A stretch of DNA of 64,000 bases, from positions 64,001 to 128,000 of the forward strand of contig JAZRKN010000014.1 in assembly GCA_045646345.1 (NCBI GenBank), written 5' to 3'. The DNA is from Candidatus Scatovivens sp. (lineage in GTDB: Bacteria; Bacillota; Clostridia; TANB77; CAG-508). Every line of letters begins with the position of its first letter. The stretch's first letter is position 1. The position numbers and the translations under genes were made by a program. The notes beneath the pieces were generated by a model. The model was not told where the DNA came from and did not search any database. It saw only the letters and a program-made list of their open reading frames with translations. Positions 41,969 through 47,561 of the stretch are shown piece after piece.

Positions 41969-42178
41969 ATAATGAAAAGGACTTCATATATGAAGTCCTT
42001 TTTTTACAATTCATAAACAAAAATGTCTATGTTTGGGTGTTTGACCCAAACAAAATTTGCTTTTTTGAAAATTGTTTGGGTAAATGTTTGAAAAAACTGT
42101 AAAAAAATCAAAAAAGTTTAAAAGTGAAAATAGTAGTTGAAAGTATAGGAATGTTTATTTTGATATGGTTTGATTGGT

Positions 42179-42286
42179 TTTATAAAAAAATAAAAGGCCC
42201 ATTTTTAATGGACCTTTTGGTGCGCCCTTACGGGCGTTTTTGTTTATATTTAGGCATTTATTAATTGTTTGGGGTTGTATCTGGTT
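42179..42286. repeat. Junction 3: tRNA-3'-like core plus arm B
   Basis: TGGTGCGCCCTTACGGGCGTTTTTGTTTATATTTA..TTAATTGTTTGGGGTT, near identical to 44590-44658; preceded by TTTATAAAAAAATAAAA and a terminator as in arm A. Confidence 0.9.
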
Positions 42287-42980
42287 GTTTAAAATTGATA
42301 TTATATATTATTTCAGTTAAAGGTGCTTTTACTTGATAAAATTCTGTATCTCCTATATTTTGATAATTCATATCAAATAAAACAATTTTTAATGTATCAT
42401 CTATAATAAATTTTTCAGGTATTTCAAACGACATTTTATGAATCAATGAACCATCATCTAGAAGCTCATCTTGTTTTTGTAGTCTAGCTTCATTCAATAA
42501 ATTATGAAAATTATTTTCGAAAGCATTTAATCTTTTAAATGTGTGTGAATTCTTTTTATAATTTTCAAAATTATTTATATTAAACTTATCCATACTTATA
42601 AGCCATTCAAAACTAGAATCTAATGAAATTTGCCCATTAAATCTATCACCTAAATAATAGTCTTTGTTTGCAACTCTTAAAATATAACCACTATGATTTA
42701 AAGGCTTTAAATGTGAAAATTTTAGATTAAAATTCAATTTATTTTCTGTATAATTTAAATCTGATAAAACAACTTTAAAACCATCTATCTCGATTAAATT
42801 TTCTTCGACTAAAGCATTTTCCATATCATAAGATAAATCTTTTTCAACAGAATATATATCTTTATATTTATAATCATATATTTTTTCGTATATAAACCAT
42901 CCAATTTCATTATAAAATCTTAATACTATTAATAGAATAACAAGAATAACTAGCAATATAATTATTATCTTTTTCTTCAT
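42261..42980 (-). CDS. Membrane-anchored hypothetical protein
   Basis: MKKK + TM; GGAGG RBS; stop lies inside arm B. Confidence 0.8.
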   Translation of the reverse strand: MKKKIIIILLVILVILLIVLRFYNEIGWFIYEKIYDYKYKDIYSVEKDLSYDMENALVEENLIEIDGFKVVLSDLNYTENKLNFNLKFSHLKPLNHSGYILRVANKDYYLGDRFNGQISLDSSFEWLISMDKFNINNFENYKKNSHTFKRLNAFENNFHNLLNEARLQKQDELLDDGSLIHKMSFEIPEKFIIDDTLKIVLFDMNYQNIGDTEFYQVKAPLTEIIYNINFKQPDTTPNN

Positions 42981-43138
42981 AATTATTCCTCCTTTAACTT
43001 TTGTACTATAAATATATTATAACATATCTATACTATTAAATCAAAAGCTATAAAATCTGAGTAAAACAATTATAGAAATGGTTTACTTGAAAAAAATTAA
43101 ATAATGTTATATAAGTAAGATAATTATATAATTTTTAA

Positions 43139-44212
43139 TTGAAAGGATTTTTTATGGACGAAAACAACAATAATAAATTAGAAAAAAACAAAAATACCAA
43201 AGATAGTAAAAAATACATAGAAAAATCAGATAATAATATAAAAAATTCACAATTTAGTAATTTAACGAATAAATTTAATGCGATTAATGCTGCTACCAGT
43301 TACGCTTCTGCTTTAACCTCTTTACAATATACTATAAATAAAATTTTACCAAAAGACTATATAGACACAATGTCAGTAAGTTTACTTCAAATACAAAATA
43401 TTTTACCCCAAAATGATATAAAAATAATGTCTGAAATGCTCTTGCAAAAAAATTATCTAACAAATATATTTTTTAAATGTAATACAAACATTTTAAGTGA
43501 AACTTTAACAAATAAAATATATTTATCTAATTTTATAGATAATGCAATTTCACAAAACAACATATTAAATAATATAAAAAATATAAATATATATTATAAA
43601 GATACAATTGAAAGTTGTATGAATGAGATTTTAAAAGCCAAAATAGATTGGACTGATTTATATATAAAAAGTAATCTTACAACATCTTTTTTGGCAGAAG
43701 ATATAGAAAATTTTTCTGAAAAAGATAAAAAAGAAACCATAAAAAATGTAAAAGAAATTATAGCTTTAACAAAAGAAAAACCTGAAAATAAAGAACAATT
43801 ATTAAATAAAAAAATCACAAAACTAAAAGAAGAACATCCTATATCTTTTTCAATAATTCTAATTATTTTTCAGATTTTACTTGCAATTATTCCTAACTTA
43901 TTTACTCAAAATTCCAACGAGTATTATACTAATAATTATTATACAAATAATGTTGTTATAATCGAAAATCCAAGTCAAGATTTTATAGATAATGCTAGAT
44001 ATGTAACTGCTGAAAATCTTAATGTAAGAAGTGGTGCTGGTAAAGAATATAGTGTATTAACTATTTTGAAATATGGAACTGTTGTAAAAGTTAAAGAAAA
44101 AGTAAAACATTGGACAAAAATAGAATATATAGATAAAGATAATGATATTAATCTTGAAGGCTGGGTATATACAAGATATTTAGAAAAATTTGATAAGGAA
44201 TTGCTTCAATAA
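43139..44212 (+). CDS. Membrane protein with C-terminal bacterial SH3 domain (start probably 43154)
   Basis: YVTAENLNVRSGAG..WTKIEY..EGWVYTRYL preceded by a TM. Confidence 0.8.
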   Translation: MKGFFMDENNNNKLEKNKNTKDSKKYIEKSDNNIKNSQFSNLTNKFNAINAATSYASALTSLQYTINKILPKDYIDTMSVSLLQIQNILPQNDIKIMSEMLLQKNYLTNIFFKCNTNILSETLTNKIYLSNFIDNAISQNNILNNIKNINIYYKDTIESCMNEILKAKIDWTDLYIKSNLTTSFLAEDIENFSEKDKKETIKNVKEIIALTKEKPENKEQLLNKKITKLKEEHPISFSIILIIFQILLAIIPNLFTQNSNEYYTNNYYTNNVVIIENPSQDFIDNARYVTAENLNVRSGAGKEYSVLTILKYGTVVKVKEKVKHWTKIEYIDKDNDINLEGWVYTRYLEKFDKELLQ

Positions 44213-44252
44213 AAAAAATAAAAGTATCAAAATAAATTTGATACTTTTATTT

Positions 44253-44595
44253 TTCACACAGAAACTCTGTGAGTTTCTAGTGTGTTAGAAACTGAAAATA
44301 GTTTTCGCATCTTCTATAGAAGGTGCTTTTTTATTTCATTATTCTTCTTGAGTTTCTATAGAAAGTAAAAAAATACATTCCCAAAATCGCACTTGGGAAT
44401 GTAAATTACACACCCAAAAATGATTTTTATGAAATTTGGGAATGTTTTTGGGAATGTAAATTGAAAAAGTTTGAGAAATTTTGTGAGAGTTTTAAAAATA
44501 CTCAAAGTCACAAATGCCTCTAAATGAACCTTTCTCAGACTTTATAACTTTTTTATAAAAAAATAAAAACCAGTATCTCTACTGGTTTTTGGTGC
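44253..44595. repeat. Arm A, copy 2 (~340 bp)
   Basis: Aligns end to end with 47149-47490 with scattered substitutions. Confidence 0.95.
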
Positions 44596-45596: not shown

Positions 45597-46062
45597 CTCC
45601 TTTCATCAATTTACTTTTGGCTCTATAATATATAACTCTAGCCCAGTTTTCGCTTTTATTTAATAAATCTCCGATTTCTTTAAAACTAAGCTCTCCTGAT
45701 ATTCTAAAAAATACCACTTGTTTACTTATTTCATCTAAATCATTTATTCTATTTTTTAATTCTTCTTTTTCGTTTTTTGAAACAATTATATCTTCTATAC
45801 ATTCATTATATATTTGTTGTCCTATTTCATTTATATCTACATTTTTCTTACTTCTTTTTAATTCATCAAAATATAAATTTTTAGCTATTGAAATTAACCA
45901 TGTTGAGATTTTACATTCATCTCTAAACTTATTAATATTCATTACTGCTTTATAAAAAGTTTCCTGTGTTAATTCTTCAGACAGTTCTTCATTATGGCTT
46001 AAATATAATAGATATTTGTATACAGTTTCAAAATATTCACGATATATTTTGTCTATATCCAT
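45577..46062 (-). CDS. ECF sigma factor
   Basis: EELTQETFYKA..STWLISIAKN; LSFKEIGDLLNKSENWARVIYYRAK. Confidence 0.92.
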   Translation of the reverse strand: MDIDKIYREYFETVYKYLLYLSHNEELSEELTQETFYKAVMNINKFRDECKISTWLISIAKNLYFDELKRSKKNVDINEIGQQIYNECIEDIIVSKNEKEELKNRINDLDEISKQVVFFRISGELSFKEIGDLLNKSENWARVIYYRAKSKLMKGVDSYGE

Positions 46063-46243
46063 ATAAATTTCTCCTTTATTGTTAGACTTTTCAAAATACT
46101 TTTCGTTACATGTTTTTTAAAAATTTATAAAGATATTTATATTATATCAAAAAGTAATCATTTGCAAAACATTTGTTGAATGCATATTACTTTTATGATA
46201 CTATTTAATTGAAAAAATAGTAATTTTTTAAGGAGGTAATCCT

Positions 46244-47131
46244 ATGAAAAAAACTTTTAAAATTTTATCATTAATTTGTATTTTAATTTCAATTGCTTCT
46301 TATGCATATGCAAGTTATACAACTTATGAAGCTGAAGAATATATATTAAAACTTAAAAATATTAATGAAGAAATTGAGAGAATTGATTTAGTTAGTTTTG
46401 AAGAATGTAATCCGGAAGAAACAGGTGGAAATTATACAACTACATTTGAAGTAGTCCCCCTATTTGGAGAAGAATCTATAGATTTTTTAGATAAACATGA
46501 TACGGAAAACTATTACATTAAACAAATAATTAGATATAATTATTTATCTGGAAAAGCTGCACAAGATATCGAACATACAGTTTTATCTGGAAAATATGAT
46601 GAATATAATGAAGGAAAACTTATAACATATGATTTAGCAAGAAATGAAAAATTTAATAACGCTCTAGAATTTTATCAATATTGTTCTGCAGCTAAAGACA
46701 ATGATTTTATTTGTGTAAAAACAACAACATATAAATCATATAAATTAACTCCTATAAAAGAAATTAGCCTTTCAGATATAAAAAACAATAAATTAACTTA
46801 TAATCATGATGACTTTTCAAATTTAAAAATAGGATTCAGACTAAAAAATAAAAATGGAGAATATAAAACTTTTAAATCTAATGAGAATTACATGACAATG
46901 ACTAGATATGGTTCAAATCCAATAATAGATAAAGAAAAAATTATTATTTTTGATTATGAAGCAGGAACATACAAATCTAATTCGCAATATTCATTCAAAG
47001 TTCCAATTAAAACAGGATCTCAATGGGTAAGTTTTATTTTTACAATTTCAATTCTTCTTTTAGTAATAATAATTTCTTTTATTGTTTTGAATATTATCTC
47101 TAAAAAGAAAAAATTGAACAAAAATAAATAA
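46244..47131 (+). CDS. Exported protein with C-terminal membrane anchor
   Basis: Signal peptide (AYA), C-terminal TM and lysine tail; AAGGAGG RBS. Confidence 0.8.
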   Translation: MKKTFKILSLICILISIASYAYASYTTYEAEEYILKLKNINEEIERIDLVSFEECNPEETGGNYTTTFEVVPLFGEESIDFLDKHDTENYYIKQIIRYNYLSGKAAQDIEHTVLSGKYDEYNEGKLITYDLARNEKFNNALEFYQYCSAAKDNDFICVKTTTYKSYKLTPIKEISLSDIKNNKLTYNHDDFSNLKIGFRLKNKNGEYKTFKSNENYMTMTRYGSNPIIDKEKIIIFDYEAGTYKSNSQYSFKVPIKTGSQWVSFIFTISILLLVIIISFIVLNIISKKKKLNKNK

Positions 47132-47148
47132 GGAAATTTATTTCCTTA

Positions 47149-47490
47149 TTCACACAGAAACTCTGTGAGTTTCTGTGTGTTAGAAACTGAAATTAGTTTT
47201 CGCATCTTCTATAGAAGGTGCTTTTTTTATTTTATTATTCTTCTTGAGTTTCTATAGAAAGTAAAAAAATACATTCCCAAAATCGCACTTGGGAATGTAA
47301 CTTACACACCCAAAAATGATTTTTTTGAAATTTGGGAATGTTTTTGGGAATGTAAATTGAAAAGACCAAGAAGTTTTGTGAGAGTTTTAAAAATATTAAA
47401 AAGCACAAATGTCTCTAAATGAACCTTTCTTAGACTTCATAACTTTTTTATAAAAAAATAAAAACCAGTATCTCTACTGGTTTTTGGTGC
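47149..47490. repeat. Arm A, copy 1 (~340 bp), abutting the tRNA 3' end
   Basis: Multiple hairpins, four TTGGGAATGT boxes and the tRNA terminator AAAAACCAGTA..TACTGGTTTTT. Confidence 0.95.
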
Positions 47491-47561
47491 ACCCAGAGGG
47501 ATTCGAACCCCCGGCCTTCCGGTTCGTAGCCGAACGCTCTATCCAGCTGAGCTATGAGTGC
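47485..47561 (-). tRNA. tRNA-Arg(ACG)
   Basis: GCACTCA..TTCGG-CT-ACG-AA-CCGGA..GTTCGAATC..TGGGTGC-ACCA cloverleaf. Confidence 0.97.

Follow-up and report, generated by a model that had tools for sequence, protein, structure and literature searches.

Directly behind the tRNA-Arg(ACG) gene of a Candidatus Scatovivens sp. contig (JAZRKN010000014.1, assembly GCA_045646345.1), within the 64,000-nucleotide window that was analysed (positions 64,001 to 128,000 of the forward strand), lie two short tandem modules with shared ends that encode neither an integrase nor a relaxase. On the basis of sequence comparison we favour the interpretation (probability about 0.55) that these modules are satellites of integrative and mobilizable elements (IMEs), which carry attachment sites (att) plus an origin of transfer (oriT) and would be moved in trans by the integrase and MobV relaxase of a helper IME. 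The assembly, designated G000, consists of 19 contigs (96.7% complete, 3.3% contamination), and the comparison with relatives covered 75 congeneric genomes, which are metagenome-assembled genomes (MAGs).

Ends, origin of transfer and parentage of the modules

The arm that opens each module, arm A, is present at 47145-47484 and 44250-44589 (93.9% identical, 321/342; BLAST E 8e-151), and a shorter arm B with the att core closes them at 44590-44657 and 42218-42285 (91.2% identical, 62/68; BLAST E 6e-24). In each module the minus-strand gene ends within arm B, with stops at 44649 and 42261. A tblastn search of 26800-47700 with seven helper backbone proteins found no integrase, relaxase or xis-like remnant, and the lone match, a weak DUF3848 similarity (E 0.007) inside the 239-aa gene, is read as chance. 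The layout given in the original prediction, namely two tRNA-anchored modules with common arms, no integrase or relaxase and a gene running into arm B, is therefore borne out. A third, diverged A-like arm had also been described; it is present, but belongs to another element lineage, since it is just 58% like arm A and 70.7% identical (arm positions 19-189, E 1e-15) to the left arm of an element in G043 that is full-length and has tRNA-Arg(ACG) as its native site. No right end of this third-arm element was found.

In three congeners (G006, G085 and G024) arm A is found in two pieces, positions 1-216 adjoining a tRNA with a CAT anticodon and positions 285-342 lying ~2.8 kb further in, and between these pieces are encoded a tyrosine integrase, an open reading frame (ORF) of ~100 aa and a MobV relaxase. 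The MobV of the full-length relatives passes the NF041497 cut-off, although the relaxase frame of the G024 copy at tRNA(CAT) is broken; the ~100-aa ORF has no family match and is, from its position, presumably an excisionase. The arm A of the compact elements (hereafter minis) thus corresponds to a fusion of the att arm (1-216) with the mob leader and oriT, from which ~2.5 kb comprising int, the small ORF and mobV are missing. Positions 214-340 of the mini are colinear with the helper mob leader, and the distance from leader to nick is 82 nt in the mini and 89 nt in the helper. Repeats of ACATTCCCAAA occur in the left arms of mini and IME alike at offsets 133, 145, 182 and 215 and, given their position, may be arm-type sites for the integrase. 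The distance from repeat to core in arm B equals that in the IME right arms, and the arm B score was reached by 0/1000 and 0/1000 shuffles for two IME right arms and by 4/1000 for the third. Both arms and the core therefore appear positionally homologous to those of the three IMEs, and it is very probable that the minis derive from this IME family. The proposal that the modules are non-autonomous elements with an attP of the form armB-core-armA is supported by these integrase-bearing elements with homologous arms; the original prediction had also suggested a search for an integrase flanked by the same arms, and one with homologous arms exists in the three congeners, while no cognate one was found in this assembly. 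What that reading overlooked is the MOBV oriT within arm A, the fusion created by loss of int, xis and mob, and the origin of the core from a different tRNA. A tree of the att arms was poorly resolved and gives no ground for a single origin.

A third arm A in this genome (76-77%) lies directly after a CAT-anticodon tRNA on contig C1. This tRNA ends GAGGGCGCACCA, which is the exact core closing both modules, whereas tRNA-Arg(ACG) ends GGGTGCACCA. Judging by its features, the tRNA(CAT) on C1 is likely tRNA-Ile2. As the core GGGCGCACCA is the 3' end of this tRNA, tRNA-Arg(ACG) would be a secondary site, and the array, read from the tRNA, would comprise mini 1, mini 2 and what is left of an older native element. 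tRNA-Arg(ACG) does have native elements, namely an element in G050 with GGGTGCACCA as its right core and a full IME in G043. The native element on contig C74 of G050 (L078:10849-13380) is 2.5 kb long and carries an integrase and an oriT of another type, without a relaxase or a sizeable cargo ORF; a homologue of the 295-aa gene of the window lies just beyond its right core. On contig C1 of G006 (L017:13922-14060) a second copy of the tRNA-Arg(ACG) 3' end and its terminator lies 138 nt downstream of the gene, resembling a very small cis-mobilizable element (CIME) without genes.

The predicted nick site of module 2 lies in an exact TAGTGTG/TTA (44278-44287), and that of module 1 in a one-base variant (47173-47182) in which one base 5' of GTGTG is missing relative to the helper form, as is also the case in the C1 copy. 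The nick of pMV158 is at TAGTGTG/TTA, amid three inverted repeats that overlap (PMC5090054, PMC3105389), and the predicted nick in the mini oriT is likewise surrounded by three such repeats. In the full-length relatives the oriT is upstream of the MobV gene, on the coding strand, and this gene is absent from the minis. The oriT hairpin is fully paired in 18/18 copies, with a variable loop and one compensatory pair in 3 copies, although kinship inflates such scores. Most minis also have a terminator-like hairpin that was not seen in full-length elements and that faces the reading direction of mob-xis-int. It is found at 8 places in 4/75 genomes, and 2 more copies contain a 52-nt insert; palindromic inserts of ~50 nt in the middle of the terminator (L033:15060-15110, L035:5546-5590) occur in two species that differ in arm lineage. 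Identity among seven compact arms is 88-100% for the oriT and 96-100% for the terminator, and that of the att spacer is 57-60% between the two arm lineages. A hairpin near the C15 integrase was rejected as an oriT, and a promoter scan was at chance level (47 vs 49.0).

The family of minis, its cargo and candidate helpers

We counted 12 minis in 7/75 genomes: three each in G000 and G050, two in G043 and one each in G005, G044, G045 and G020. In this count four minis are cut by contig ends, the right end is unseen in G000 C1, G050 C8 and G050 C23, and G050 C62 is cut on the left; the right end of the G020 mini is undelimited, and metagenome contig L048, with arm B only, is excluded. The minis are 1.8-3.5 kb long, occur as one or two modules per site, and occupy tRNA-Arg(ACG), the likely Ile2 tRNA and tRNA-Met with the same compact end and different cargo. 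The nick region is kept in 8/12, including both window modules, and lost in 4/12, and the family forms a gradient from full IMEs through elements with integrase and oriT (G050 at tRNA-Arg, and an element at tRNA-Leu in our own assembly) to those with att and oriT and those with att only. Window-type arm B occurs at 7 places in 6/75 genomes, and where these places and those of the terminator were read, neither integrase nor relaxase was present. The third mini of G000 (L008:5770-9531, contig C1) is located at tRNA(CAT), carries CatA-like, MerR and helix-turn-helix (HTH) cargo and runs off the contig. A segment at tRNA-Met on contig C13 (L014:1-1315) encodes a cyclase and is 99% identical to cargo of a G050 mini, without arm A, and at tRNA-Trp on C1 (L013:1859-2909) a 1.04-kb insert bounded by 12-nt repeats of the tRNA end contains a single 250-aa ORF without a Pfam family and no integrase.

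Mini segments of 668-889 nt are 98.5%, 99.2% and 99.3% identical between genomes whose neighbouring protein genes are 75-77% and tRNA clusters 83-93% identical; G050, with a completeness of 71% and possibly a mixture of strains, is a partner in all three comparisons, and two of them include or adjoin the oriT. Between the window and G005, a comparison independent of G050, the sigma factor is 95% and the arm 93-96% identical, and the flanking DUF5711 gene 78%. These values suggest that mini segments have spread between species recently, in line with the satellite interpretation. The family-wide oriT pattern was detected in 11/401 genomes, 5 of them outside the genus, an oriT pattern had 0 matches in viral contigs, and a scan with the arm B pattern returned 1 metagenome contig, 3 genome records (not additional ones) and 0 viral contigs. 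The arms had no match in plasmids, and the helper integrase identified no locus in viral sequences. Four public runs were picked as holders of the module (two bovine gut, one pig gut and one terrestrial) and were inspected as contigs over 43800-48600, a stretch that takes in less than half of module 2 and where depth does not equal copy number. The anti-sigma part of module 1 is ~99% identical in contigs of 4/4 runs, and 3/4 contain a variant without the 295-aa gene and oriT, in which 47232 is joined to 46183; the SH3 part has a depth of 0-4 in the run contigs, which proves nothing.

The features of the locus are listed in Table 1. Pfam cut-offs were passed by Sigma70_r2, zf-HC2 and SH3_3, and no Pfam family scored above cut-off for the 295-aa and 239-aa proteins. 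The two modules have no interior DNA in common, and the cargo of the family is a mosaic. The extracytoplasmic function (ECF) sigma factor of module 1 is 95-97% identical at the nucleotide level in minis of two other species, with mostly synonymous differences, while the outer domain of the zinc-binding anti-sigma (ZAS) factor varies among minis. The 239-aa protein of module 2 is a stand-alone form of this outer domain as found in the G005 and G045 minis. The original prediction had called the two cargoes unrelated, which does not hold, as the 239-aa protein aligns over 220 aa, at 63% identity, with the outer domain of the zf-HC2 anti-sigma in the single module of G005; that module resembles module 1 in its sigma factor and zinc finger and module 2 in its outer domain and arm B. 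An atlas search with the 239-aa protein gave unnamed clusters only and a DUF5643 lead below 0.9. Homologues of the 295-aa protein outside minis occur in 3/74 other congeners, and the SH3_3 protein, used as query, had no match in the 74 other congeneric genomes. Other family cargo includes HTH regulators, a CatA-like acetyltransferase (also in the G006 IME), MerR, TauE, LysE and a cyclase. Genes next to arm B receive their final codons from it, whereas their homologues outside minis end earlier, which suggests that the junctions between gene and arm B have been trimmed to the arm repeat. The cargo comparison across relatives called for in the original prediction showed that content at tRNA-Arg(ACG) differs among species.

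Table 1. Coordinates of the tRNA-Arg(ACG) target, the two modules and neighbouring features in the window
Feature	Position	Strand	Remarks
tRNA-Arg(ACG), insertion target	47485..47561	-	ends GGGTGCACCA, 1 mismatch to element core
Module 1	44590-47484		2895 bp
Module 1 left att arm	47269..47484	-	81% to G006 IME over 195 nt; ACATTCCCAAA repeats
Terminator-like hairpin, mini-specific, module 1	47202..47221	+	at position of IME mob-xis-int operon
MOBV-type oriT, module 1	47151..47190	+	predicted nick 47179/47180
295-aa protein, signal-like N-terminus	46244..47131	+	module 1; optional cargo
ECF sigma factor	45577..46062	-	Sigma70_r2
zf-HC2 (ZAS) anti-sigma	44649..45596	-	last codons enter arm B
Module 1 right att arm (arm B)	44590..44657	-	arm-type-like repeat 44640-44648
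Core GGGCGCACCA, module 1	44590-44599
Module 2	42218-44589		2372 bp
Module 2 left att arm	44374..44589	-	81.8% to G006 IME (180/220)
Terminator-like hairpin, mini-specific, module 2	44307..44326	+
MOBV-type oriT, module 2	44255..44294	+	predicted nick 44284/44285; 94% over 52 nt to G006 IME
SH3_3-domain protein	43139..44212	+	module 2
239-aa membrane-anchored protein	42261..42980	-	last codons from arm B
Module 2 right att arm and core	42218..42285	-
Core GGGCGCACCA, module 2	42218-42227
Left arm of older element	41968..42217	-	tRNA-Arg(ACG) is native site of this lineage
ECF sigma and DUF4179-like anti-sigma pair	40003..41968	+	behind old third arm; may or may not belong to its element

The terminator hairpin of the tRNA is at 47460-47485, inside the left att arm of module 1. 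The distance between tRNA-Arg(ACG) and tRNA-Arg(TCT) is 20 kb here versus 0.2-1.1 kb in three relatives. Between the two genes, 27052-41968 comprises 15 kb of variable genes (an HNH protein, a BadF-type ATPase, a 1916-aa protein and a PMT_2 glycosyltransferase), and no further att core was found in this interval.

This assembly encodes seven tyrosine recombinases, and MobV relatives are found in 52/75 congeneric genomes. A 16-kb IME at tRNA-Gly on C1 (L012:2300-18599) encodes an integrase, MobV and a C5 DNA methylase, and its oriT type is that of a relaxase-less element at tRNA-Leu(TAA) on C16. On C11 a lone VirD4-like coupling protein of the CD1115 family (L091:11661-13232, above cut-off) is encoded among housekeeping-type genes, and no VirB4-like AAA_10 protein scored above cut-off in this genome. 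Coupling proteins of the CD1115 family are present in 72/75 congeners, mostly as one copy of ~500-530 aa; this lone protein may be domesticated and serve many MobV elements. The G044 genome contains a mini together with a MobV element whose oriT is the same.

Proposed movement in trans and competing explanations

If the modules are satellites, movement would begin with the arrival of a helper of the lineage at tRNA(CAT), likely Ile2, whose integrase and excisionase would act on armB-core-armA and excise a circle of 2-3 kb. The helper MobV would then nick the mini oriT, with a third, conjugative element providing the mating pore, and in the recipient the helper integrase would insert the circle at its home tRNA or at tRNA-Arg(ACG), which has GCACCA in common with it. 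Recombination through genes common to stacked or co-resident elements could swap cargo, as could deletions that end at the arm repeats. Both modules in this assembly would remain dormant until a helper arrives, and module 1 would be the most recent arrival, since new copies would be inserted next to the tRNA. Whether the minis further constitute a self-propagating, doubly non-autonomous satellite family, the IME equivalent of miniature transposable elements with inverted repeats (MITEs), that spreads regulators and sensor modules among gut Clostridia at several tRNAs, seems to us a matter of even odds. In that wider proposal, which may equally well hold or fail, the cis sites (attR, and attL joined with oriT) amount to ~400 bp and enclose exchangeable cargo of 1.5-3 kb.

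Several observations weigh against movement in trans. None of the 75 genomes contains a full-length element with a window-type arm B or with an arm A above ~84%. No cognate helper was found in this assembly, where the integrase nearest to the Ile2-type reaches 47-50% identity and lies outside the Ile2-type clade, and five other mini-bearing genomes reach at most 74% to the Ile2-type integrase. The sole resident MobV was rejected as the helper, being 46-47% identical and associated with a different oriT type. Decay is common, with the oriT lost in 4/12 minis and the right core mutated in two, and a base has been lost beside the predicted nick in the module 1 oriT. The high identity of the oriT block could reflect selection or recent exchange and fits both. 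In addition, the relatives are MAGs, and in one of them, G050 (71% complete), tRNA-Met is found on two contigs whose occupants differ. Neither a circle nor an empty site was seen in the run contigs, where a circle looks like the tandem junction owing to the identity of the two A arms over their first 40 nt, and where the stretch inspected has no empty-site partner.

The main rival possibility is that the minis are CIMEs in practice, i.e. deletion products that move solely in cis with an adjacent IME that later leaves, the oriT being a passenger. Accretion and cis-mobilisation of this kind have been reported (PMC5704250, PMC7563491), an IME-mini tandem is present at tRNA-Met in G043, and cis spread needs no mini oriT, in agreement with the persistence of the 4/12 minis that carry cargo without it and with the missing helper in G000. 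The oriT of the G043 IME is non-cognate. We nevertheless regard this explanation as rather unlikely, because 8/12 minis keep the nick region, which is the best-kept part of arms that are otherwise ~60% alike, because in G000, G005 and G044 minis adjoin the tRNA and no IME precedes them, and because no Ile2-type IME was found at tRNA-Arg(ACG) in the 11 genomes read, in three of which the contig ends <=2.5 kb from the tRNA.

It is improbable that a single mini integrated and was duplicated locally, the interior of one copy then being replaced by homologous recombination with incoming DNA and no second site-specific event taking place. The G005 module, the left side of which matches module 1 and the right side module 2, would suit such a history, but the arms differ by 6-9%, no interior DNA is shared, the module 2 arm is nearer to that of G005 (95.6%) than to that of module 1 (94.1%), and ComEC was not found in this assembly. 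The original prediction envisaged an integron-like store of envelope-sensing and surface genes. In an integron-like array, a resident, dedicated recombinase would gather and reorder envelope-sensing cassettes at tRNA-Arg(ACG). Although the tandem arrangement, the common ends, the lack of an enzyme and the surface or ECF-related genes of both modules fit this picture, it is highly unlikely, as the ends are phage-type att arms of IMEs plus oriT rather than attC sites, the family cargo is general and wider than envelope genes, only one or two modules occupy a site, and all resident integrases are <=50% identical to the lineage that uses these arms. An assembly artefact from mixed strains, which the contig number and contamination of the assembly might bring to mind, can be almost wholly discounted: the arms are non-identical, the region lies within a 162-kb contig, and the junction types recur, gene-armB-core in public runs X1 and X3 and outer domain-armB-core in G005.

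Relation to known hitchhiking elements and significance

As satellites, the minis are best placed between CIMEs and integrated elements with an oriT but no relaxase (iOriTs), since they miss one defining feature of each. The CIMEs of streptococci, 1.2-13 kb long, are deletion derivatives of IMEs that keep attL, attR and cargo (PMC7563491, PMC5704250), and the window modules resemble them in retaining att ends apparently homologous to those of IMEs, in their cargo, in the lack of integrase, excisionase and relaxase genes and in tandem stacking at the 3' ends of genes or tRNAs. In contrast, CIMEs by definition have lost the mobilisation module and transfer only in cis, whereas both window modules have lost the relaxase but kept an oriT cognate to a MobV helper, and one derived compact end is common to minis of different species and at different target tRNAs. 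The iOriTs and relaxase-less mobilizable genomic islands are likewise integrated, have an oriT without relaxase or mating-pore genes, as do the window modules, and form cross-species families (bioRxiv 10.64898/2026.01.13.699239, PMC5704250); the module 2 oriT likewise resembles that of a relaxase-bearing helper, the G006 IME. In the preprint, 92% of att-delimited islands have a nearby integrase and 6% lack vestiges of one, all but one exceed 4 kb, and most iOriTs are unrelated to their helpers outside the oriT (bioRxiv 10.64898/2026.01.13.699239), whereas the minis are 1.8-3.5 kb and have no integrase, and both of their ends come from the helper family. It is possible that the 6% without vestiges include such elements. 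We found no description of att-plus-oriT elements lacking both enzymes in titles and abstract openings, a search outside of which most subscription journals and supplements lie.

Other systems are less close. IMEs are defined by encoding their own excision and integration (PMC5704250), genes that are absent from the window modules. MOBV IMEs such as IMESag-rpsI, and the pMV158 oriT, have the same nick motif and three inverted repeats (PMC5090054, PMC3105389), and the full-length relatives described here are similar in combining a tyrosine integrase and MobV with an oriT upstream on the coding strand, but the window modules encode neither enzyme and their inverted-repeat sequences differ from those of pMV158. 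MITEs and attC-site clusters that have no integron integrase (CALINs) likewise keep cis sites alone and rely on a recombinase in trans (PMC11389934); they exploit transposases or integron integrases and do so inside one genome, whereas minis would use an IME for both recombination and conjugative transfer. The Dehalococcoides ssrA islands also stack at the end of an RNA gene, many without an integration module, and show discordant histories of cargo and ends, but depend on a serine recombinase system, and no retained oriT is described in the part of the paper cited (PMC3146451). The ends of the window modules consist of ~400 bp of IME att arms and oriT and the modules hold divergent genes. Integron cassettes, by comparison, are bounded by attC sites and are usually single promoterless genes.

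Scans for mobile elements seek integrases or relaxases, and elements that have neither go unseen or are filed as dead. Should att arms and an oriT be enough, small islets linked to tRNAs could in many cases be active hitchhikers of hitchhikers, falling under the ~4-kb floor reported for integrative conjugation hitchers. The family described here provides a clean test set, in which the helper is named, the nick site is predicted and variants with and without an oriT occur naturally, and within it pairs of ECF sigma and anti-sigma factors with exchanged outer domains move between species.

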